Virus record (IMG/VR): IMGVR_UViG_3300013121_000005
Location: 288,001-352,000 of that record
Origin: a virus
Lineage: Duplodnaviria; Caudoviricetes
Length of the DNA: 64,000 bases
Direction: 5' to 3' (one strand)
Shown: one piece after another, positions 1 through 54,443 of the stretch
Numbering within the stretch: the stretch's first letter is position 1
Layout of the letters: every line of letters starts with the position of its first letter
Position numbers and translations under genes: made by a program
The notes under the pieces: generated by a model
Seen by the model: the letters and a program-made list of their open reading frames with translations, nothing else
Database searches by the model: none
What the model was told of the DNA's origin: nothing

Positions 1-118
1 GCTGGAGAACCCGACGTGGGGTGCTGTCCGGCCCCATGAGAAGGTCGCCGACCTTCACCTGCTCGACCGGCAGCAAGGTACCGTCGAACATGAGAATCTT
101 CTGACCCTTCCGGTGGCA
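1..118 (-). mobile_element. Intein N-terminal splicing region inserted in the Walker A motif
   Basis: CHRKGQKILMFDGTLLPVEQVKVGDLLMGPDSTPRRV starts at Cys474, right after GPQG; typical HINT block A. Confidence 0.88.
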
Positions 119-1537
119 CCCCTGAGGTCCGATGAGCAGAGCGTTGGCTTTATCAGCACTCTTGCTGGGGCTCAAAGCTAGGAAAAAGTCGTGCCACCTG
201 GCACTCTCACGTACTTGACGGATGAATTCCTTTACCTGATCAAAGCCAGAGCCCACTACATCATCAAGGTTGACGACAGGCTTGACCCCGGGGGTGATCG
301 TAAGGGCCCCAGGTGCCTCCCCCGTGAAAGGGTTACCGTTGCCAATTTTGCAGACATAGAAGCTGTTCTCGTCCTGGTAGTACGCATGCAGCTTGGCCTT
401 TCGATCAAGGATATACTTGATCAAGTTGCCAGTCTCAGACTTGGAAAGTCGTTCGACAACCTCCTTAATCGTAGCGTTGCGAAACTCTAACTCGAAGCGT
501 TCCTCCGCTGTTAGGAGCCCCTTCTTATCCTTATAGGTGACGTTTCTCGGATCAAGGTCATCCAAGAATACAAGAGCCTCATGGAATTCTCCATCCTTCA
601 TCCCCTGGAAGGTTGTTGGGAGGTCAAGGTGTGCTCGGACCTGAGTCGCTAGAGGTTTAACCAAGTCGTCAATCTGGTTCGCCAAGTCCCAGAGAAGACT
701 AAGGTTACTCTTGATGAAATCTAAGAACTCTGACGGTCTCCGAATGAAAGTACCGACCATACCGTTTTGGATTGCGTCTACTACAATGAGCGCCTTACGG
801 ATCGAGTAGGCACTCACCTCATCCGCCTTTTTGCCGTCGCGAATCTCCCCGTTGGCATCTACGTTCTCATAGATCGAAATGGCAAGGTCTGTAATTACCG
901 GGTCACGATGGACCTGGATGCCTTCCACCGTATGTCGTCGTACCAGAGTTGCGAAGTAGGACTCTAGCTTTTCGACGACAAGACGCCCCACGTCGATTGC
1001 AATACCCTTCGACCGCTCAGCCTCAAGAACCCCCTTCGTAAACCGAGTAATCGTAGGGCGATTCATGTTGAATTGAATCGCAAATGAGTTGAGCTGTTCA
1101 ATTGTCTCGGGAGCCCCACTAATTCGCCCCCCGAACAAGAGAAGCTTACCCGGACGAATCTTCTCCACCGTGTTCTTTACAGTGTGGAACCCTTTACGGA
1201 TTACTTCACACACCTCGAAGATAACCCTCATGAAGTTATGACCGTCGAGTGTGTGTCGAAGGTCTGCAAGAGGGTCATCCTTTTCCCCTTCCGTAAGAAA
1301 GGGGTTGTGCTTTCGTCTGGTCGTATTCCGAACCTCAGACAGAAGAGCGTTGTTGGCCTTTGCGAGTTGGGAAGTCTCCTGGTCTATGCTGTGACACATC
1401 GAGTCCAACAGCTTCAGGAGTTCCGTGAGGTCTTCAACATCTTTCTTCTTTAGGGACTGGATTAGGTCCACAAGGGCATAGAACCGGGTTGGGTTCAACT
1501 CTTCGATTGAAAGGTTAGGATCGATAAGGGTTTGCAT
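1..1537 (-). CDS. AAA+ / P-loop ATPase, intein-containing, truncated by the window edge
   Basis: Manual translation from ATG 1537 (MQTLIDPNLS...) is open to base 1. It contains VNLDDVVG and ALLIGPQG (start of Walker A) followed by intein block A. It is absent from the ORF track because no stop lies in the window. Confidence 0.85.
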   Translation of the reverse strand, partial: MQTLIDPNLSIEELNPTRFYALVDLIQSLKKKDVEDLTELLKLLDSMCHSIDQETSQLAKANNALLSEVRNTTRRKHNPFLTEGEKDDPLADLRHTLDGHNFMRVIFEVCEVIRKGFHTVKNTVEKIRPGKLLLFGGRISGAPETIEQLNSFAIQFNMNRPTITRFTKGVLEAERSKGIAIDVGRLVVEKLESYFATLVRRHTVEGIQVHRDPVITDLAISIYENVDANGEIRDGKKADEVSAYSIRKALIVVDAIQNGMVGTFIRRPSEFLDFIKSNLSLLWDLANQIDDLVKPLATQVRAHLDLPTTFQGMKDGEFHEALVFLDDLDPRNVTYKDKKGLLTAEERFELEFRNATIKEVVERLSKSETGNLIKYILDRKAKLHAYYQDENSFYVCKIGNGNPFTGEAPGALTITPGVKPVVNLDDVVGSGFDQVKEFIRQVRESARWHDFFLALSPSKSADKANALLIGPQGCHRKGQKILMFDGTLLPVEQVKVGDLLMGPDSTPRRVLQ

Positions 1538-9184: not shown

Positions 9185-10827
9185 GGGGACTCCATTATGG
9201 TTGATTCTACAGTAATGAGGTCCTCAGGCACTTTCCCAGTAGCCCTCAATTGTTCCAGTAAAGCTCGAACAGTAGCCTTACTGGAATCAAAACTTCCAGC
9301 CTTTGTTGGTCTTGGGAGCCTAAGGGTCAAAGACAGGGAATCAGATAGGGAAAGATGCATGGGGGCCACCCCCACCAATTCCTTCGCTGCTGGGCCAATA
9401 CCATAAAGGTCAGGTCCAAACTCTACTACATTGAGGTAGAGTTCCAGGATCTCTTCCTTCTTAAGGTGACTCTCCAAGACAATGGTCAGAAACGATTCTT
9501 GGACTTTACGCCCGATAGTCTTCGAGCGCCTAAGCCATAGGTTTTTTGCGAGCTGCATTGTGAGGGTGCTTGCCCCTCGAACGGCTCTACCTGCTTTCAG
9601 GTTAGCAACTAGAGAGTTCTCTACAGCATGAAGAAGGAACCCCTTATGCTCGAAGAAGCTAGGGTCTTCTGTCGTCTGAAGAGCCGTAACCATATTCGGG
9701 CTTATCGCCTCGAAGGGGACCCAACCTTGTGATCCCGGCCCAGTTTTACGAGAGAACTCACGACCCTCCTTGTCGAAAGCGGTATACGTGAATGGAGCCC
9801 GTAGAGCCTTGATACAGCTCGGCTCTGGGCTAGGGCTCTTACACGTAAGCTTCCAGTCGAGCTTCACTACTGGTTTCGTACGCAGGTCAAATTGGAAGTC
9901 TCCTGTAAAAGTCAAATCCTTCAAGGGGCCTGTCCGAAGCTCGATTGGTACTGCTTGGTACCAGGCTTGGCAAGTTTCTGCCCCCCAAAGGTGGTGCTCT
10001 TTCAGATTGGCCCGAAGAGTCACCCCACTAATCTTGACAGCCAGGTCGCCTTCTACAGCCTTAGTGGGGTCTAAAGGCCCGACCTCGACTTTTGAGAAAG
10101 TAAGGGGTTCCGTGTGCAGTCGGTCATGCCGAAGACGTAGGGTCTCAGCAAAACCCGAAGCGAGTCCTCCTCTATACCCAACTCGAACTTCAGTGGCAGT
10201 GACCCCCTTGACCTCCACGTTTGAGACACTTGCCGACTGTGCTCCCAAATCGACAGTCGTTGGGCCGACCTGTATTGGCCCAGTCTCATACCCGAAAAGC
10301 TTCGAGGTAGGGTGAAACACACCCTCCGTAAACTTCAGCTCTGTCCGATTACGCTTGACACATAGGTTCTTGACTATGCCTCTACCTTTTGAATGAGTGA
10401 CCTTGGTAGAGACTGCGCATACCTCTCCTTCACTAACCGAAGTATCTTCAAGATCCGCTCTGACTCCATCTTTGGTAATGTGGAGACTCAAGTGCTGAGC
10501 CGTAATCTTGTACTTCTCGGCTCCTGTTGACTCCACTTGAGTTGTTTTCTTCGAGTCCAAACTAGCGGTGATCTCTCCAGTAGGGAGATTGACGGTTCCC
10601 CCACAGACCGTCGCAGAAGGAAATCTCCCGTTCACCCATTCGCGATCCACAACTACGTCCTTTAGGACTAAGCACTTTTGCTGAACCAGAAGTTCTACCC
10701 CGTCTACATGGACCCCAGGCTTCTTGTTGATCTGCCAGCGGATGACGGCTGGTGCAGAAAACCAACAAGCCCCTAGGACCATGCTGAAAGACGTAAGCCC
10801 AAACAACAACTTTTGGCGTCGTGTCAT
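9181..10827 (-). CDS. Monofunctional peptidoglycan glycosyltransferase (GT51) with long N-terminal extension
   Basis: N-terminal TM; EDPSFFEHKG, GASTLTMQLAKNL, RKVQE, KEEILELYLN. Confidence 0.92.
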   Translation of the reverse strand: MTRRQKLLFGLTSFSMVLGACWFSAPAVIRWQINKKPGVHVDGVELLVQQKCLVLKDVVVDREWVNGRFPSATVCGGTVNLPTGEITASLDSKKTTQVESTGAEKYKITAQHLSLHITKDGVRADLEDTSVSEGEVCAVSTKVTHSKGRGIVKNLCVKRNRTELKFTEGVFHPTSKLFGYETGPIQVGPTTVDLGAQSASVSNVEVKGVTATEVRVGYRGGLASGFAETLRLRHDRLHTEPLTFSKVEVGPLDPTKAVEGDLAVKISGVTLRANLKEHHLWGAETCQAWYQAVPIELRTGPLKDLTFTGDFQFDLRTKPVVKLDWKLTCKSPSPEPSCIKALRAPFTYTAFDKEGREFSRKTGPGSQGWVPFEAISPNMVTALQTTEDPSFFEHKGFLLHAVENSLVANLKAGRAVRGASTLTMQLAKNLWLRRSKTIGRKVQESFLTIVLESHLKKEEILELYLNVVEFGPDLYGIGPAAKELVGVAPMHLSLSDSLSLTLRLPRPTKAGSFDSSKATVRALLEQLRATGKVPEDLITVESTIMESP

Positions 10828-12587
10828 TTGGCACTCATCAGTTTAAGTACAGCAAGAGCCGCTAGCCTCTTAGCATCTTGCTTTTTACCGGCTGAAGCCT
10901 CCCCACGAAACTTGGTGAATACACACTCACATGTGATCTCAGGGAGGTGTGGGGGACCCGTGATGGAGAAATGGTACTCAGGGGGAGGTTCCCCTCTGGT
11001 TTGACTGAGAGACTGAAGAACTGAAATGGGGTCGTTAGTAGGCAGGGGGACCTCAGCAGCACCTTCAACAGCAACCGGGGCTGCTGGAACGGGAAGCCCA
11101 ACGATTTCGGCAAGGAGTGCTAAGGCAGCATACTGTCTAGCTTCTTTGCTTGTAGTCCCTTTAGCGGGTCCCCCTGTTAGCACCCCTTTTGGATGGTGCA
11201 GCGAAGCATGGACCGTGAACGTAGGGGCATGGTCAGGGCCTTGGCGTACCGTCTGGAATGTTGGGGTAGGCCACGAATACATCTGAGTAGCTTGGGTGAG
11301 GACACTCACTGCATCCTCAGGCTTAGATGCTAGCCTACTCAACATGGCTTCTTGAAGGCTCTTCCACCCAAGGTCAGGGTTGGCCTCCAAAATAGAGGCA
11401 AAGCACACAAGAGGGACTCGGTTGTCCTTGAGGCGATTAAAGAATGCCACCCGTATTTCCTCTCGAAGCTCATTAGGAGAACGAGTCCAAACCTTAATGA
11501 CCCTCTCGAAATCCTTGAGATTTAGCCCCTCAAGTCGTCTTGTGTCTAAAGTAACTTGAGCTTTCGCGTTGGCCTTCTCTTTTAGGCACTCCGAAAGCTT
11601 CTGACGGTCAGCTTGAATGACTTGATTCATATGCTCGGCAATCTGCTCAAGATTTTCACGGCTGTAGGGCAAACACTCCCCCTTGATAAAAGCTCGAACC
11701 TGTTGGTGGGTCACAAGATCCGCATACCTGCGAATGGGGGAGGTAAAGTGCAGATAGGCAGGCAGGTTAAGCCCGTAATGCCCAAACAGAGTAGCCCCAT
11801 AGGATGCCTTATCCAACAACATGTGGGTCTGCTGTCGAATGAGGTCCAAGTTGGAAAGAGGGGTGCTGAAAGCGCTCTGGATTTGAGCCATCAGCTCACT
11901 TCGATCTGGAGCCGCCGCTCGGGCAACATGGTTCCGAAATGGAACAGGAATATCATGCCCGACTACAAACTCAGCCACTAAGAAGTTGGCCAGAATCATC
12001 AGCTCCTGGACTATGATATTGCCCATAGTCTCCTCTTTGCTTTCGACCTTTCGGAGGTAGCCCTCTTCTGTTGTAATCCATCCGTTGTTTAGGTCGTACA
12101 GAGCAAGAGCCCCCGCCCTTCGACGATGATCCAGCAAGCCCAGTGCTACATGACTAGCATCTGCCAGCATGCTGTGAAATCTATGGGCACTATCTGCCAA
12201 AATACCTGGAATTTCAGTATAGGCAATTCGGGCTTCGCTTGTAAGTTGGGTAGCAGAGATACCAAGAAGTTGAGCCTTGTCGAAGGTAGGGGAGACCAAT
12301 GCTTCGACAGTCAAGGTTTTGCGGGGGGCCCCCGGAAACAAGGACAAGCTTCCTTCCGAGAGTTCTCGTGGTAGCATGGGGCTATTGCCCCTCGCATAGT
12401 ACTTGGTGGTGACCCGCTCTTTAGCCAGCTCATCCAACTGGCTCCGGGGTTGCACAACTTCCGACACATCCGAGATCGAAACCAAGACCCGGTAGTAAGC
12501 GCCGTCACTAACTACCCAAATTGCATCATCAATGTCTTTGGTGTAAGATGCATCAATGGTAACCCCACGAACTTCAGGAAGAGACAT
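10824..12587 (-). CDS. RNB (RNase II/R family) exoribonuclease fused to two dsRBDs
   Basis: TIDASYTKDIDDA, ISDV, SPMLP, ELMILAN, HFTSPIRRYADL; two GPxHxP...K..A..AA dsRBD repeats. Confidence 0.9.
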   Translation of the reverse strand: MSLPEVRGVTIDASYTKDIDDAIWVVSDGAYYRVLVSISDVSEVVQPRSQLDELAKERVTTKYYARGNSPMLPRELSEGSLSLFPGAPRKTLTVEALVSPTFDKAQLLGISATQLTSEARIAYTEIPGILADSAHRFHSMLADASHVALGLLDHRRRAGALALYDLNNGWITTEEGYLRKVESKEETMGNIIVQELMILANFLVAEFVVGHDIPVPFRNHVARAAAPDRSELMAQIQSAFSTPLSNLDLIRQQTHMLLDKASYGATLFGHYGLNLPAYLHFTSPIRRYADLVTHQQVRAFIKGECLPYSRENLEQIAEHMNQVIQADRQKLSECLKEKANAKAQVTLDTRRLEGLNLKDFERVIKVWTRSPNELREEIRVAFFNRLKDNRVPLVCFASILEANPDLGWKSLQEAMLSRLASKPEDAVSVLTQATQMYSWPTPTFQTVRQGPDHAPTFTVHASLHHPKGVLTGGPAKGTTSKEARQYAALALLAEIVGLPVPAAPVAVEGAAEVPLPTNDPISVLQSLSQTRGEPPPEYHFSITGPPHLPEITCECVFTKFRGEASAGKKQDAKRLAALAVLKLMSAK

Positions 12588-27928: not shown

Positions 27929-28510
27929 ATGAACCTACCTCTCATCCAAGCTGCCCTCGAACTGATTCGACTTGAAACCGAAATGGGCGAGCACTTGGCT
28001 TACCTCCAACAGCAAGGGGGTGAGATTGGACCGCTCCTCAAGGAAGCTCACCTCAAGAAGCGAGAGAAGCTTGCCAACGCCCACCAAAAGATGCGGGAGC
28101 TTCTCCCTGACCCGAACATACTCCCAGAAGAGCTGCCCATCCAAGCTGCCCTCAAGGACCAAAAACCCATGTCCCCACTGGCAGTCTTCACCCGCCTGAC
28201 TCAATTGGGGTTCCTCCCACATATGCATGAAGTCTCACACATGCTGTGGGAAATGGCACAAGCAGGGGAGATCGAATACCTCAACCCTGGGCTGTACAAA
28301 GCCCACAAACCCAAAAGTCGCTTCCACGACCTCTTCGCCTCCGTCCACCAACCCGGCGACATGCCGAAAACCTTGATCGAACGCCTGACCGTCGAAGCCC
28401 TCGGCTGGCCAAAGGAGTTTGAGCAAGAAATCAAAGACTTCCGCAAGCTCAACACGGAGAGTAGGATCCAAGCGGCTGGGGCCTTCCTTTTCAATTGGCC
28501 AGAGGATTGA
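27929..28510 (+). CDS. Hypothetical protein, possible winged helix
   Basis: LWEMAQAGEIEYLNPGLY; internal KSRFHDL. Confidence 0.7.
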   Translation: MNLPLIQAALELIRLETEMGEHLAYLQQQGGEIGPLLKEAHLKKREKLANAHQKMRELLPDPNILPEELPIQAALKDQKPMSPLAVFTRLTQLGFLPHMHEVSHMLWEMAQAGEIEYLNPGLYKAHKPKSRFHDLFASVHQPGDMPKTLIERLTVEALGWPKEFEQEIKDFRKLNTESRIQAAGAFLFNWPED

Positions 28511-28537
28511 AAATCCTCTAGTCTCTTCGTTCTAGCC

Positions 28538-28729
28538 ATGAGGAGACGAAACTACCGGGAAGAGTTTGACCGAAAGAAAGACCTGGAATTCCTTGCGACC
28601 CTCCGCACGGCTACCCGGGAACAGCTTCTCACCCTCGAACACAACTTCCAACACGACAGTGCACCCGCATGGAAGAAAATCGCCATCGCGAGGGCCCTTC
28701 AGAGACTACCCAAAGAAGAAGAGACCTAA
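28538..28729 (+). CDS. Hypothetical protein
   Basis: Class I promoter-like motif upstream. Confidence 0.6.
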   Translation: MRRRNYREEFDRKKDLEFLATLRTATREQLLTLEHNFQHDSAPAWKKIAIARALQRLPKEEET

Positions 28730-29113
28730 ATGAAATCAGGATGCTGCAACGCCGAAATCACCTTCACGCCAAGTGCCTTCTTGGACTTTGGTTGGGACAG
28801 GTGCAGCCAGTGTGAGCTTGAAGTCCGCTACGCTCTCGTAGGCCACCCATGGGAGAAGGAACATGCATGTGGGGTGTTCCGAGCCTACGACAACAAGTTG
28901 TACTTCTTCTGGATGGCCGTGTCCTCCAAACAATCCTTGGACGATTACCTCAAACGAGGTTGGAAATTCGTCGGCGTCATTAAAGAGGTAGTCGCCACGA
29001 TCGGACAGAAATACCACACCCAAGACACAGACATGTTGTCCCCGGAACAACATAGAGCCTTCTCGCACTACTGGATGCCCCATGTGGAAAACCCAGAGCT
29101 GGCCCTGAAATGA
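28730..29113 (+). CDS. Hypothetical protein, related to 51314-51763
   Basis: SGCCNA...CSQC, mirrored by SDCCQA...CSRC. Confidence 0.65.
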   Translation: MKSGCCNAEITFTPSAFLDFGWDRCSQCELEVRYALVGHPWEKEHACGVFRAYDNKLYFFWMAVSSKQSLDDYLKRGWKFVGVIKEVVATIGQKYHTQDTDMLSPEQHRAFSHYWMPHVENPELALK

Positions 29114-29952
29114 CCCAAGAAGACCTTGACGACTTCCTTGAGTTTATTGACAACAAGCCTAAGCTTAAAGTCATCCAACCACGGGATGAAGGGGATCTCG
29201 ACGACTTCATCCTTGCTACCCAAGAGGAAATTCCAGCCCTGCCCGTGTGTGAGGACCCCGAAGCCCAAGTAACTCGGATCCTCACACACGTGCCAACCGC
29301 ACTCCCCTCCTACGTCCAACAGCTCGTCCAGCGATCCCCCTCTGCGTTCATCCAGACCCTCCTCAGCCCCATGAACGCTCGCACAACTGTGCCCCGTAAC
29401 CGAATCCTCGAATTCGGCTACGTCACTGCCAAAAAAATCCACCCGCTAGACCCACGGGGCATCCGCTGCCTCTCTGACCTCGGCCTCCCACTCAAAAAAG
29501 AATGGGTCATCGAAGATGGCCGCCGCTGCGTCGCCTACACGTTCGAGCCCGAACGGTTCATCAAACAACGCCGTCATCGAGTCGCTACCGTAAAAATCCG
29601 TAACGCTCTCGCCAAACTACGCAACTACACTTGCGAGATTTGCAAGAACGTCTACCCCCTCTCTTTCCTAGAGTGTGACCATAGGATTACCTACGCCATC
29701 AGCGGAGACGAGAACATCGAAGCCCTGGGCCTGGAAGCCTTCCAACTCCTCTGCCTCTCCTGCAATCGACGTAAGCTCATCGAGTGCCGCCGCTGCCCCA
29801 ACACACTCCCAGAAAAATGCGGTAGGTGCTTCTGGGCCTCCCCCGATGACTACGACCACATCGCAACCGTACCCGTCAAGTACTTCGTACGAGTCACCAC
29901 GCCCGACAAGTACAACCAACTCGTAGACTACGCCAAAGTTCTTGGCATCTAG
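29110..29952 (+). CDS. HNH endonuclease
   Basis: CEIC, LECDHR, LLCLSCNRRK, further CxxC. Confidence 0.82.
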   Translation: MTQEDLDDFLEFIDNKPKLKVIQPRDEGDLDDFILATQEEIPALPVCEDPEAQVTRILTHVPTALPSYVQQLVQRSPSAFIQTLLSPMNARTTVPRNRILEFGYVTAKKIHPLDPRGIRCLSDLGLPLKKEWVIEDGRRCVAYTFEPERFIKQRRHRVATVKIRNALAKLRNYTCEICKNVYPLSFLECDHRITYAISGDENIEALGLEAFQLLCLSCNRRKLIECRRCPNTLPEKCGRCFWASPDDYDHIATVPVKYFVRVTTPDKYNQLVDYAKVLGI

Positions 29953-29986
29953 TTGAAGAACCCAAATCTGGTTCGTTGTGTAAAGC

Positions 29987-30217
29987 ATGAACCAGCGCTT
30001 CATCTTCCGAACCAAGGACGGGACCCAGTACCACTTGGTTCAAGCGGGGCTCAATGGCCCCTGGACGGTCATCTACAACCCAGGGCCCGGAGGACAGAAG
30101 AAGTTCCCCTCCCTGAACCAAGCCCTCCATACCCTCGGGGGCATCGTCCAGTGGGATGCCTGGTCCAGAACCTCCAAGGCTACCCTCCTCGCCCTCAACC
30201 ACGATAAGGCTATCTAA
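29987..30217 (+). CDS. Hypothetical protein
   Basis: Class I promoter directly upstream. Confidence 0.6.
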   Translation: MNQRFIFRTKDGTQYHLVQAGLNGPWTVIYNPGPGGQKKFPSLNQALHTLGGIVQWDAWSRTSKATLLALNHDKAI

Positions 30218-30220
30218 AGG

Positions 30221-30589
30221 ATGACACCCTTCTACAAAACGCTCAACCAAGAGCACCAAGCTGTCCTGCTCACCCAGATGCGAGCATGGGGGAACGAGGC
30301 CATCCGACTCTTCGAGCAAGCACGCCTCCCACAAGGTACCATCCCAGTAGGGGCAGGGGACTTCGACGAGTACACCCTCCCAGGAGCCCTCCGACAAGAG
30401 TTGTGCTCCGCCCTCCGTACCCAACCCTCCCTAGAAGACGTCGAAGCCCAAGTCGCTCGACGCCTCACCCTGTGGGTCTTCAACCACAACAGGATGAGAC
30501 CCAAGGACGTAAACTGGCAACGGAACCCAGATACCTGGAAGCGTGACCTGGCTAAGCTCATGCAAACCCTACGACAGATTCTGACTTGA
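30221..30589 (+). CDS. Hypothetical protein
   Basis: 122 aa ORF. Confidence 0.65.
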   Translation: MTPFYKTLNQEHQAVLLTQMRAWGNEAIRLFEQARLPQGTIPVGAGDFDEYTLPGALRQELCSALRTQPSLEDVEAQVARRLTLWVFNHNRMRPKDVNWQRNPDTWKRDLAKLMQTLRQILT

Positions 30590-30955
30590 GAAACCTAGAG
30601 GGCCTTCGTTTAGGTAGGAGAGAGAGCCGGGAGAAGAAGACGGGAGACTGAGAAGAAGCCGTGAGAAGAAAGAAGCCGTGAGAAACAAGGAAAACCCCGC
30701 CCCTTGGGGCCCGGTCCCTCCTTGTTTCCAGTGAGATTGTAATCCTTCTTAGTCCCTCGTAAACCAAACCTACGACCGTCTCAGAACAGCGTCTTTCAGG
30801 AGAGAAAATGAACCCTCTTGGCACGCTATTTGACGCGAACTTTCTAAGGCGAGGGCTGAGGTTGGATTTCCGGTAACGGGCAGGAGAAACAGTTGATGAA
30901 AACCCACTACCCTTTTGGGGTGGGTTGGTGTATAGAGTTTGGAAAGGAGACTGTA

Positions 30956-31411
30956 ATGAGTGACCAGGAAATGAGTGCAGAGAAGATGTTGGCGTCCTAC
31001 AAGGACGCCACGGCGACCATGGAGAAGCTGGAGAAGGCACTGGAGGTGCTGAAGGGCCAGCGGAGCAATCTCGTGAAGGGGCTGTACGACCTTTCGGGGA
31101 AGGGGCCCTACACGGTGGAGGGGCGCGAGTGCAACATCGTGGTCAAGGGGGATACGTACTACTTCTTGCCCGTGAAGACGGCTGGGAGCGGTGGCGGGCC
31201 CAGGAAGGCGGCTCCCTCTGCTGAGACCTTGGCGCGGTTGGCCGAGGCAGTGAGGGCCAAGGGTGGACCCGTTCCCGTGTCCGTGATTGCCAGGGACTTG
31301 GGGGAGGAGGTTGGTCCCAAGTTCTCCGAGCTGGTGAAGGCGGCTCTTGAGCAGGGCCTGATCACAAAGACCGGGGAGCGTGCGGCGACCCGTTACAGCG
31401 TTCCGGCCTGA
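30956..31411 (+). CDS. Putative DNA-binding protein (C-terminal winged HTH)
   Basis: SD AAGGAG; ALEQGLITKTGERAATRY. Confidence 0.7.
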   Translation: MSDQEMSAEKMLASYKDATATMEKLEKALEVLKGQRSNLVKGLYDLSGKGPYTVEGRECNIVVKGDTYYFLPVKTAGSGGGPRKAAPSAETLARLAEAVRAKGGPVPVSVIARDLGEEVGPKFSELVKAALEQGLITKTGERAATRYSVPA

Positions 31412-31597: not shown

Positions 31598-31642
31598 TGA
31601 AAAAAGGTGTACTTCCTGGGAAAGGAGGTACACCTTTTTTCA
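31598..31642. terminator. Bidirectional intrinsic terminator
   Basis: TGAAAAAAGGTGTAC...GTACACCTTTTTTCA. Confidence 0.85.
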
Positions 31643-31830
31643 TGTGGGTGTCTTCAGTTTCGTATGTCCGGTTAGAGTTTCATATCCCCTAGGGGTCATG
31701 AAACTCTAACCGGGTGTATGAAACTGGATCTTGGATCCAAGTCACCTACATTGGGTTTTCGGGGTCGAACTAATTGAAGGGGGTCCGGGAGGGGCGGTTG
31801 AATTAATCGAAGGGGTGTTGTCTTTTTTGG

Positions 31831-31867
31831 TTGAGAGAACTCGCACCCCTTCGTTGAAGTGGTGTAA
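31831..31867 (+). promoter_or_regulatory. Composite class I + GGTGTA promoter
   Basis: TTGAGA-N15-CGTTGAAGTGGTGTAA; same 18-mer at 35404-35421. Confidence 0.65.
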
Positions 31868-32510
31868 TCAGGAAGAAACCACGAAGAAGGTAGGCGATTG
31901 ACGTAAGCATTGGGACGCTAGCAGAATTCTGAGGGAGGGCCGAAGTGCCGTACGTGACCCTTAGAGCGGCGATAACCTTGAACGTACAACGGGCAAATTC
32001 TTAGAGGGGTGCCCTAAGCGTACGGTGATGTCGGGGACATGCCGCTCGCTCGTTAGGGGCCCCCTCACCACCCTAAAGAAAAGAGGTACGATGAGATAAG
32101 TTAGGACGCTAGAACTCGGGGTTCGCCATTGTAATTCAGAACCTACCGAGTGGAAAATTCTAGGGCAAAGGAGACTACCGACCCTAGAGCGGCGATAACA
32201 GCAGGTAGATGGGCGTAAATAGCCTGGGAGAAGGGGTCTTCTCCCAGGTGTATGTAGTCTGGGTGGAGGCTCGGTTGTTATAAGTTGGGACGCTAGGGAA
32301 TGAGGGTGCTCGACGGGATGCATACCGGGTGGGACCTCAGACCGAAGAATTCTAGAGGGAGGGCCACTGACCTCTAGAGCGGCGATAACAGCAGGGGCAA
32401 AAGGTTTGCCTCGGGGAGGAGGGCTCCTCCCCGAGGAATTAGGGTTAGAGGATGGGTACATGGGTTGAAGCCCACTACCTGAAGCGCCCATCCTCTAACC
32501 CTAGTTTGTT
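31868..32510 (+). ncRNA. Putative long structured ncRNA with three copies of a conserved motif
   Basis: GGACGCTAG...AATTCT...TAGAGCGGCGATAAC x3 with covarying stem; 17-bp terminal hairpin; no plus-strand ORF in track. Confidence 0.65.
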
Positions 32511-32583
32511 TGGTGAGGACAGGGGACCAGCGTGACAAGAGACGGCACTTGACTGGTGTAGGTAGACGTAATACTATGTAGGT

Positions 32584-32808
32584 ATGAAAAACCTACCTAC
32601 GCAGTTGAGCAACACCTTCCACAACCTTTGGACGCGGGACGTGGGGACGCCGGGCTACGAGAAGTGGAAGTGGCGTCTTATGGATCGTTGGATTTCCGAG
32701 CTGGTTCGAGCGTGTCCGGAAGGCGCGGTTCCGGCTTTCTTTTCGGGTTACGAACGAACATCAGGAAGCCTGGATATGCCGCGAGGGGCTGACGAAGCTC
32801 CGGAGTGA
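32584..32808 (+). CDS. Hypothetical protein
   Basis: FHNLWT..VG..GY.K..W. Confidence 0.65.
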   Translation: MKNLPTQLSNTFHNLWTRDVGTPGYEKWKWRLMDRWISELVRACPEGAVPAFFSGYERTSGSLDMPRGADEAPE

Positions 32809-32924: not shown

Positions 32925-33155
32925 ATGCGAGGGAAAGAAGCTTACTGTCGGTTCTGGTCGGGCATCTTCTATGTTGCTACCTACCCTGACCAACAACGCA
33001 TCTGTTCGAGCAAGAGCTTTCGGCGGGCCACTCGGAAGGCCCGTAACCTTGGGTTCGACGTCCGGGTCTACAAGAGCGAGTATGGCAAGGCTCCGAGGGA
33101 CGCGGTTCAAGTCATGGGGGGTTCCTACGTGCTTCCACGGAAGAAAGTTAGTTGA
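32925..33155 (+). CDS. Hypothetical basic protein
   Basis: ORF in plus-strand run. Confidence 0.55.
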   Translation: MRGKEAYCRFWSGIFYVATYPDQQRICSSKSFRRATRKARNLGFDVRVYKSEYGKAPRDAVQVMGGSYVLPRKKVS

Positions 33156-33440
33156 CAGAGTTTTCCCTTGTTCGTTGAGTGAATATGATGTGAAACTTCT
33201 GGGTGGGTTCGATTCCCACGAGGGGCCGCCTAAGCCCCTGCTCTAAGTGGTGAGACAGAAGGCCAGTAGCATCTGTGGTCCCTTTGCCTGGCAAACCATT
33301 GGGATTACCTCTGGAAAGGGCTGTTAGGCCAGACCGGCTTCTAGAGAAGAGAGAGCCCCCTTGGAACCTAAGGCCAAGGGGGCTCTTGATTTTAACCTAC
33401 AGGTTCATTGAAGGACCCTTGGGCCCTTCGTTGAAAGAGT

Positions 33441-35384: not shown

Positions 35385-35666
35385 TTGAGAGACCCAAGGC
35401 TGATTCGTTGAAGTGGTGTAACTAAGACAACCCCCCAAAAGTGGGGACCTAACATTGCGCGAAACCCCTCTATTGAATATTAGAGGCAGCCAAAAACCTC
35501 CAGCCTAATGGAAAGAGGGTAGTATGGATTAGATGACGCGGGTGGCCCCCGCTTGTGCAGGGAGGTTACGCTTCCCCTCCCCTCCGCGTAAATAGTAGTG
35601 AGATTAATGTTTTGGGCCCTTGTTTCCCCTTGCTTTTAAGAAAGGGGAAACAAGGGCTTCTTTTTT
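35385..35666 (+). ncRNA. Putative ncRNA of about 250 nt between composite promoter and terminator
   Basis: Promoter 35385-35421; no ORF; terminator 35616-35666. Confidence 0.55.
35616..35666 (+). terminator. Intrinsic terminator
   Basis: GCCCTTGTTTCCCCTT/AAGGGGAAACAAGGGC plus T-tract. Confidence 0.85.
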
Positions 35667-35702
35667 AGCTTGAAGAACCTCGGGTCTGTTCGTTGAAAGA
35701 AC

Positions 35703-53624: not shown

Positions 53625-54164
53625 TCAACGCCATGGGCTGACTTCTCTGTAATCCTTCCTATGGACTTCAATGGCCTTGGTATCAAAGTCCAGGTGCACC
53701 ACGATGTTTTCCCGGAGATCCTTGAGACCAATCTCCTTCGCCAAGAAGTCCCAGACGTAAGTCTCCAACACCGTGAGGAAGTACGGTCGTTTCTTGCTCT
53801 TCAGCTCATCGAGGCGACGCAGGAATTTGCCGGGAACCTGGGTACCGTTCAACGCCACCAAAGACAGGGACAAGAAATCACCAGCTTCCTCGTGAAAAGT
53901 GGCTAGGTATACCTTTCCGTTCAACGTGCTGACGGCAAGGTTGTAGACCTGATCGGGGCCTACCTGGAGTAGGTTTCGAGCGAAATCGAACGGAAGGATT
54001 TCATCCCCGTAGTTGTCCAAAACCAGAAATGCGTCCTGCGTTGTAGAAACCTCGAAGGTGAACAAGTTGGTAGCAGGAGGGGTGATTCCTTCCGCCGCCA
54101 ATTCCCTTACTGCGGAGGGCTGGTCGAATACCCGAACGTTTTTGATGGTCTTGTTATGGTGCAT
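53625..54164 (-). CDS. Hypothetical protein
   Basis: 179 aa ORF. Confidence 0.7.
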   Translation of the reverse strand: MHHNKTIKNVRVFDQPSAVRELAAEGITPPATNLFTFEVSTTQDAFLVLDNYGDEILPFDFARNLLQVGPDQVYNLAVSTLNGKVYLATFHEEAGDFLSLSLVALNGTQVPGKFLRRLDELKSKKRPYFLTVLETYVWDFLAKEIGLKDLRENIVVHLDFDTKAIEVHRKDYREVSPWR

Positions 54165-54443
54165 GACTTACCCAGAGAGGTTCAGAGTTTACACAGGAAG
54201 CCATGCTGAAAGAAACTGGACAGTCGCCCTTCGATTTTCCCATCTACGGGTAGGCGAAGGGTATGTTCCGTCAGGTGATCAGCCTACTGGTTGAGGTTCC
54301 TAACCTTGGCCTTCGGTTAAAGAGTCCTATTGTCCAGCTTCTTTCAACACAGCTTCAGTAACTCAACGAATACACCAAGGGAGCTTCAACCTCTCAGTAC
54401 CATTTTGAATAATTGCCACAGGGTTGGTCGGGCAAACCACATA

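Follow-up and report, generated by a model that had tools for sequence, protein, structure and literature searches.

The DNA analysed here, referred to as the window, is a stretch of 64,000 nucleotides (nt) that covers bases 288,001-352,000 of the 363,484-bp IMG/VR record IMGVR_UViG_3300013121_000005. The element in question is a locus of repeated sequence boxes on its plus strand, between positions 31864 and 32513 (positions are those of the window unless the genome is named). The record, with a GC content of ~54% and a completeness of ~76%, is a jumbo tailed phage, uncultivated, in which terminase, portal and prohead protease genes are recognisable; terminase relatives sharing 40-80% identity with it occur on IMG/VR contigs of up to 513 kb. 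Genes in the window are directed leftward up to ~27.9 kb and rightward beyond, and the locus is set in a hypervariable region of orphan genes. An earlier, sequence-only reading had proposed that it encodes a long, structured non-coding transcript with three covarying copies of an RNA motif.

The repeated boxes and their pairing

Two boxes mark the locus. The 5' box, GGACGCTAG, occurs exactly three times (at 31913, 32104 and 32288), and so does the 3' box, TAGAGCGGCGATAAC (at 31962, 32185 and 32375), in agreement with the sequences and coordinates given by the sequence-only reading. Both boxes are always paired, in the same order and at variable spacing, with 40-78 variable nucleotides separating them within a module. 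Elsewhere in the record we found no GGACGCTAG, no TAGAGCGGCGATAAC and no copy of the 12-nt core AGCGGCGATAAC, even with one mismatch.

The three copies share the layout UUR-GGA-CGCU-AG, optional hairpin insert, RAAUU, hairpin, AGCG-GCGA-UAAC, and AATTCT stands ahead of every unit hairpin. They are 67, 99 and 105 nt long and are separated by spacers of 124 and 85 nt. Unit 1 (31910-31976, plus strand) has no insert and consists of TTGGGACGCTAG, CAGAATT, the hairpin CTGAGGG/CCCTTAG and AGCGGCGATAAC; it scores 56 bits with R1, a covariance model built from the three units. Unit 2 (32101-32199, plus strand; 117 bits), with the hairpin CTAGGG/CCCTAG, carries a 43-nt insert hairpin between the 5' box and AATTCT (pairing ACTCGG GGTTC ... 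GAACC TA CCGAGT), and its fold z-score is -2.2. Unit 3 (32285-32389, plus strand; 107 bits), with the hairpin CTAGAGG/CCTCTAG, has an insert hairpin of ~50 nt (TGAGG...CCTCA); its fold z-score is -3.2, and 0 of 200 shuffled sequences folded equally well. The inserts of units 2 and 3 are unrelated in sequence, sit at the same junction and each fold into a hairpin of their own.

The three-unit motif was thus confirmed, but a longer alignment revealed a larger repeat than the one first described. The full repeat is a module of ~190 nt, composed of the unit, the linker GGGC.AAA and a second hairpin, which reads, in module order, CUUAG/CUAAG, CCUGGGAGAAG/CUUCUCCCAGG and CCUCGGGGAGGAG/CUCCUCCCCGAGG. 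The module hairpin after unit 2 (32223-32248, plus strand; CCTGGGAGAAG/CTTCTCCCAGG, 11 bp) aligns with the one after unit 3 (32409-32436, plus strand; CCTCGGGGAGGAG/CTCCTCCCCGAGG, 13 bp), and AGCAGG follows the conserved boundaries of both units. Spacer A (31977-32100, plus strand) opens with a degenerate, partial copy of unit 1's interior (AAATTCTTAGAGGGGTGCC...CGTACGGTGA), with the hairpin CTTAG/CTAAG at 32000-32018, and continues with a long GC-rich hairpin. The local alignment score of spacer A against unit 1 is 31, compared with a null of 16.8 +/- 3.4 (1/500). Its interpretation as a fourth unit with a covarying P1 was dropped, as the duplicate is partial and R1 sees no full unit there. 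Tandem triplication of the ~190-nt module appears to be the best explanation for the origin of the locus.

Conservation among the copies is confined almost to the boxes. Of 32 box columns 31 are invariant, versus 6 of the 33 ungapped columns outside them, where pairwise identity is 29-47% and large indels occur. Because ~32 nt have remained unchanged in all copies while the interior of the triplication was randomised, this pattern indicates that the boxes are under purifying, sequence-specific constraint, whether the relevant molecule is RNA or DNA.

In all three copies the boxes can pair with each other, through CGCU/AGCG and the outer helix GUUR/UAAC, and the stems between them differ in sequence yet pair (CUGAGGG/CCCUUAG, CUAGGG/CCCUAG and CUAGAGG/CCUCUAG). 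A 15-pair model imposed on the MAFFT alignment has 95.6% of its cells paired; sliding the partners by 1-3 columns lowers this to 31-64%. The three differing but pairing stems, and the AATTCT ahead of each, which the sequence-only reading had pointed out, are real. RNAalifold, run with no imposed structure, also recovers the hairpin and a box-box helix.

Promoter, predicted transcript and surrounding genes

A phage-class promoter of the form TTGAR-N15-TTCGTTGAR (31831-31858, plus strand; TTGAGA...TTCGTTGAA) points into the repeats and is followed by GTGGTGTAA in place of a start codon. This promoter, earlier described as composite, is real and belongs to a class with 32 sites genome-wide, 20 of them in genome 300-360 kb. 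At most of these sites the ATG of a 40-110-amino-acid (aa) open reading frame (ORF) follows after 5 nt, which implies that the class would drive leaderless or near-leaderless messenger RNAs. One site is located 36 nt upstream of the first gene in a cluster of 47 transfer RNA (tRNA) genes identified by ARAGORN (genome 23,292-37,967, outside the window).

The predicted non-coding transcript occupies 31864-32513 on the plus strand; its start would follow from the promoter geometry, and its end from a terminal hairpin and U-run. Between 31902 and 32583 (~680 nt) there is no plus-strand ORF longer than 27 aa. The terminal hairpin (32437-32513, plus strand) has 20 bp and a 30-nt structured loop, is followed by TTTGTTT and is the likely 3' end or terminator. 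Its arms, 32437-32456 and 32487-32506, form 19 Watson-Crick pairs and one G-U pair, and the fold z-score for 32390-32520 is -5.65. The sequence-only reading had placed a 17-bp hairpin at 32440-32503; the hairpin is present, but longer than stated. It was missed by a simple terminator scan, its loop being longer than 8 nt. Where hairpins of the locus depart from Watson-Crick pairing, 6 positions are G-T on the plus strand and 2 are true mismatches.

An antisense ORF of 176 aa (31961-32491, minus strand) was judged spurious. At -0.236 bits/codon, its codon-usage log-likelihood falls short of the 5th percentile for ORFs of at least 150 aa, the three boxes fall in three different frames of it (spacings 223 and 190), and it has no Pfam match. 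It was rejected as a real protein on codon usage and frame logic.

Upstream of the promoter, a terminator-like, bidirectional hairpin (31598-31642) closes the preceding operon with a 20-bp stem (19 Watson-Crick pairs and 1 G-T) flanked by A6/T6. Between this hairpin and the promoter is an imperfect palindrome of 72 nt with zero loop (31655-31726, plus strand; 30 Watson-Crick pairs, 4 G-T and 2 mismatches). Of its 6 imperfect positions 4 read G-T on the plus strand, so the palindrome is better paired as plus-strand RNA. Two 20-nt direct repeats, GGTCGAACTAATTGAAGGGG and GGTTGAATTAATCGAAGGGG, lie 33 nt apart upstream of the promoter (31763-31815, plus strand) and share its GTYGAA element; they may be activator or UP-like sites.

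Downstream, the next transcription unit (32549-32808, plus strand) possesses a sigma-70-like promoter, TTGACT-17-TACTAT, and a 74-aa ORF whose ATG is at 32584. This ATG comes 7 nt after the -10 element, and the unit thus displays a second promoter type with a leaderless-like start. The 74-aa ORF has no Pfam or PHROG family, and a look-up of this neighbour gave no other contig.

Further sites of the phage promoter class are scattered in the window between 18980 and 63977 (e.g. 33408, 35670, 38694, 40369 and, on the minus strand, 53356), with two GTTGA elements ~21 nt apart. Several of them precede no ORF. A second ORF-less unit at 35385-35670 has the same promoter and the identical GTGGTGTAA start (the same 18-mer, at 35385), followed by ~200 nt of stems and a canonical terminator, GGGCCCTTGTTTCCCC...GGGGAAACAAGGGC TTCTTTTTT. 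At 33152-33400 there is a promoter-class site with no ORF and, at ~33200, a string resembling a tRNA T-arm, GGGTGGGTTCGATTCCCAC; ARAGORN called no tRNA at 33152-33400. On the minus strand, 54150-54389 holds a promoter-class site with no ORF downstream and is a possible fourth non-coding RNA (ncRNA) gene. Besides the promoter, no motif is common to the three-unit RNA and the other ORF-less loci.

The gene immediately upstream of the locus encodes a 172-aa singleton protein, unique among 5.8 billion proteins, with weak structural leads to winged-helix helix-turn-helix domains (TM 0.33-0.42, leads only). A plus-strand gene block at 28000-31000, which includes an HNH-like ORF of 280 aa, has a GC skew of -0.05 to -0.26 and an AT skew of +0.15 to +0.20, opposite to the other rightward genes, and this suggests an acquired module. 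At 10824-12587 on the minus strand, a 587-aa protein combines an RNB exoribonuclease domain (E 5e-59) with two double-stranded RNA (dsRNA)-binding motifs, by its domains an unusual phage-encoded enzyme of the RNase II/R-like type. The large terminase (genome 79,359-82,718) is 1119 aa long; many relatives match over only ~660 codons and the alignment has a gap of ~455 residues in invariant columns, which suggests that the protein may carry an intein-like insertion. A Hint domain was also seen in the leftmost ORF of the window (2-1537, minus strand). The closest large relative of the phage also has a tRNA cluster, of ~45 genes.

A probable structured RNA, its possible role and rival explanations

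The locus has what a stand-alone ncRNA gene would generally be expected to have in its sequence, i.e. its own promoter, no coding capacity and a terminator-like end. Ordered, complementary box pairs at variable distance are explained by base pairing and not by a double-stranded DNA binding site, and plus-strand RNA is thereby favoured. Promoter, lack of any ORF above 27 aa, terminal hairpin with U-run, plus-strand G-T positions and pairable, co-occurring boxes all support the non-coding structured transcript of the sequence-only reading, and we conclude that the locus is probably transcribed into a structured non-coding RNA.

The following proposal, from transcription and its exact ends to the fold and every function, is deduced from the sequence. 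The phage-specific promoter would produce a stable, highly structured ncRNA of ~650 nt from the plus strand, as a stand-alone gene. In each module CGCU/AGCG and the short outer helix GUUR/UAAC would join the two invariant boxes, and the joined boxes would form a purine-rich internal loop, GGA facing GCGA, that is identical in all modules, and beside the variable hairpin a junction, AG...RAAUU. In units 2 and 3 an extra hairpin would be inserted at this junction, and the variable helices would act as scaffolding. The three identical loop-and-junction surfaces might then serve as sequence-specific recognition sites, so that a single RNA would hold three molecules of a protein from phage or host (a small ligand being less likely) and act as a multivalent scaffold, sponge or decoy in infection. 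We tentatively favour such a multivalent binding platform because anatomy of this kind has the look of a sequence-specific binding site; its chances seem to us slightly below even. A bolder and somewhat less probable proposal is that the locus represents an undescribed class of structured phage RNA, an abundant transcript whose three identical sites would capture a host or phage protein, e.g. as a decoy aimed at a translation factor or an RNA-binding defence of the host, in a jumbo phage that also supplies its own 47 tRNAs.

The minimum free energy of the predicted transcript is -262.8 kcal/mol on the plus and -224.4 kcal/mol on the minus strand, which favours the plus strand by ~38 kcal/mol. 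Several observations weigh against the favoured interpretation. The fold z-score is the same for either strand (-6.7 for plus, -6.6 for minus), so the energy advantage of the plus strand is compositional in part, if not largely. Taken by itself, unit 1 does not fold better than shuffled sequence does (z-score -0.14). RNAalifold prefers GGCG over AGCG as the partner of CGCU, and the register of CGCU against AGCGGCGA is ambiguous. The word 'covarying' used in the sequence-only reading holds in so far as double compensatory changes are present, at only two base pairs, and one hairpin pair and one outer-helix pair (the latter in unit 2) switch between G-U and A-U. The signal is thin, however: 65 of 500 column shuffles reach the same level, which is not significant with three sequences, these are paralogous copies from a single genome, and the invariant box-box helices are uninformative for covariation. 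As for a partner protein, none was found in the 76%-complete record. It contains no CsrA gene, no L7Ae family member (PF01248, E up to 1, with positive control genomes; a host protein is possible) and no S1, S21, TnpB-like, reverse transcriptase or integrase gene.

The search for relatives adds to these objections. In its own genome R1 finds the three units only, and in 15 + 45 terminase-related jumbo-phage records (60 in all, >12 Mb) its best match has E = 0.18, the best one lying inside a 141-aa ORF. A covariance-model search of the kind that the sequence-only reading had suggested has thus returned the three units and nothing convincing. Blastn against the INPHARED phages gave no homolog. 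With the exact bipartite box patterns in IMG/VR, one pattern had no match and the other a single match inside a 1464-aa gene; a 14-mer scan of IMG/VR yielded single chance matches only. A 20-nt pattern gave 18 single matches in JGI metagenomes, of which two, on contigs of 486 kb and 529 kb, sit in a bacterial HEAT-repeat gene, and 17 single matches in GTDB genomes, about the number expected by chance. A looser descriptor (GGA-P1...P1'-GNGA plus outer helix) matched 24 and 17 times on the two strands, compared with 10-19 times per strand in shuffled genomes, and its most box-like extra match is inside an 823-aa gene. Two relatives with a homolog of the DUF2786-like gene have no comparable non-coding gap or promoter motif nearby, and this 12-kb region has no more than 148 bp of DNA in common with the closest relative. 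Antisense or seed targets of the variable RNA parts, sought elsewhere in the phage genome, amounted to 12-13-nt matches at chance level. The lack of any homolog in 60 related records and three large collections is unusual for an important RNA and bars a test of the R-scape type. Because no homolog was found, the element appears to be lineage-specific and covariation statistics are out of reach; for an orphan in all collections searched, comparative genomics cannot settle structure or function.

Rfam 15 (4227 models) was searched with the whole window and gave 0 matches at gathering thresholds. At E up to 10 the best match reached 22 bits, against thresholds of 33-100 bits, and only chance hairpin matches were seen. 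ARAGORN, the program that finds the 47 tRNAs elsewhere in the genome, detected 0 tRNA or transfer-messenger RNA genes in the window. The motif, which the sequence-only reading had called unrecognised, keeps that status. The element is real and well delimited and seems unclassified; most likely it is a novel structured RNA, found in one genome only.

One alternative would make the locus a cis-acting RNA leader, in which tandem sensors (ligand aptamers) or put/nut-like sites steer read-through of the hairpin at 32437-32513 into the rightward small-gene cluster. The locus comes directly behind a promoter and before a terminator-like hairpin and heads a block of small rightward ORFs, which would suit this function; aptamers typically combine invariant loop and junction nucleotides with peripheral helices that vary, and each unit is followed by a GC-rich hairpin of its own. 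However, the gene downstream starts leaderless from a promoter of its own, the per-unit hairpins are devoid of U-tracts, no Rfam riboswitch or leader family matches, and 650 nt is long for such an element. Moreover, an aptamer class very rarely occurs as three copies in tandem, which also speaks against a leader. We consider this explanation unlikely.

No better chance is given to a DNA-level element, with the boxes as double-stranded DNA binding sites (origin iterons, partition or operator sites), perhaps for the upstream 172-aa protein with its winged-helix leads. Three exact direct repeats of 12 and 15 bp, partly palindromic in sequence (CTAG, AGAATTCT), a cumulative GC skew minimum near 31 kb, and the 72-bp palindrome and further direct repeats just upstream would all be in line with it. 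On the other hand, the boxes recur at irregular distances of 184-223 bp, whereas classical iterons are packed far more tightly. An AT-rich stretch for unwinding is lacking too: the two kilobases have GC contents of 0.575 and 0.551, and the first of them exceeds every other kilobase nearby in GC. The 31-kb skew flip is apart from the switch in gene direction (~27.9 kb) and tracks the odd 28-31 kb block. Furthermore, binding to DNA leaves unexplained the complementary box pairs at variable distance, the kept stem pairing, the one-strand G-T mismatches and the promoter directed into the array. An iteron replication origin in particular was rejected on the wide spacing, the missing AT-rich dip and a neighbouring gene with weak winged-helix leads only.

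Less probable again is an array of processing sites or ribozymes, in which the units would self-cleave or be cut by an endoribonuclease, freeing spacer hairpins or whole units as small RNAs. This idea is compatible with stems that vary around an invariant core at a helical junction, with AGCAGG past the conserved boundaries of units 2 and 3, with the long perfect hairpins as possible RNase III substrates and with the RNB exoribonuclease with dsRNA-binding motifs encoded in the same window. Yet models of the hammerhead, twister, pistol, hatchet, hepatitis delta virus-like and other ribozymes give no match even at E up to 10, on inspection the core misfits ribozyme consensus sequences, and no nuclease partner was identified.

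The least probable explanation is a functionless remnant of tandem duplication, or spurious transcription: a singleton locus among orphan genes, next to a unique gene and absent from all 60 relatives searched, might be such a remnant, but neutral decay would not keep 31 of 32 box positions while the rest falls to 29-47% identity, and a dedicated promoter with upstream repeats and a terminal hairpin frame the region.

Much protein-coding novelty has been described from jumbo phages, but little on the non-coding RNAs that they make. In this phage a single promoter class seems to drive a cluster of 47 tRNAs and no fewer than four transcription units that lack an ORF, and the three-unit locus is the largest and most regular of the ORF-less units. 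If the multivalent RNA-protein platform proves true, it would be a new phage tool for manipulating host or phage RNA-binding proteins, and with its bipartite core of 30 nt it would offer a recognition module that is compact and portable.

Comparison with known RNA and DNA systems

The locus resembles CRISPR arrays, the solitary repeats of RNA anti-CRISPRs and VIPR vrRNA in being a set of phage-borne RNA repeats, and its joined boxes read GUU...AAC, as do many CRISPR repeats. Unlike in CRISPR arrays, the units are 67-105 nt long with variable interiors and the spacers are structured. A CRISPR array was rejected on these lengths and on the absence of any cas-like or TnpB/Cas12f-type domain and of a match to a CRISPR-DR family of Rfam; the sequence-only reading was correct in discarding it. 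The VIPR vrRNA consists of at least 4 consecutive 5-nt GGYNN units in tandem (bioRxiv 10.64898/2026.10.15.759431). A regular-expression scan of both strands of the 363-kb genome found 0 GGYNN arrays, and this candidate was rejected as well. An integrase arm-site array was dropped, there being no integrase gene in the record.

Iteron origins such as lambda ori, P1 oriR and P4 ori/crr likewise have exact direct repeats near a skew minimum and a possible DNA-binding gene adjacent. The present locus differs from them in its wide and irregular spacing, in having no AT-rich region, in its complementary box pairs with compensating stems and in the promoter that reads through it.

With HK022 put and lambda nut the locus shares the position of a promoter-proximal structured RNA ahead of terminators in a phage operon. 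The boxA sequence CGCUCUUA contains CGCU, and so does the 5' box. Here, by contrast, there are three tandem copies, each far larger, and the likeness to boxA is limited to four nucleotides.

Type III toxin-antitoxin arrays (ToxI and phage pseudo-ToxI) offer another parallel, as they also combine a promoter, tandem RNA repeats, a terminator and a small downstream gene, and occur in phages. ToxI-type repeats are ~34-40 nt long, near-identical and strictly head-to-tail. The period here is instead ~190 nt with diverged interiors, and the downstream 74-aa ORF belongs to no Pfam or PHROG family. An antitoxin RNA of this type was rejected on the long, diverged repeats and the lack of a ToxN/AbiQ-type family match downstream.

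As regards a protein-binding site, a structural parallel is the kink-turn bound by L7Ae/YbxF (box C/D RNAs, T-box stem I, SAM-I), likewise a purine-rich asymmetric internal loop with GA on both strands. The loop in our units lies between a GC-rich helix and a short helix, the kind of site that a protein clamps. It is, however, a 3 x 4 loop (GGA / GCGA), without the 3-nt bulge and the tandem sheared G-A/A-G pairs. A kink-turn was rejected, as the forced register gives a 2-nt bulge and breaks the outer helix GUUR/UAAC.

The sponge small RNAs CsrB, RsmY and RsmZ correspond to the proposed architecture in being single ncRNAs with their own promoter and terminator and several copies of a structured motif. 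Every unit has a GGA within its hairpin loop or adjacent to it, as part of AAGGAG (unit 2) or GAGGGAGGG (units 1 and 3), and every 5' box contains one too. The likeness has its limits: there are only three modules here (67-105 nt), and no Csr/Rsm family of Rfam matches. Whereas Csr/Rsm RNAs present a short GGA hairpin loop, the conserved part of the present element is a 30-nt bipartite box that would form an internal loop and a junction.

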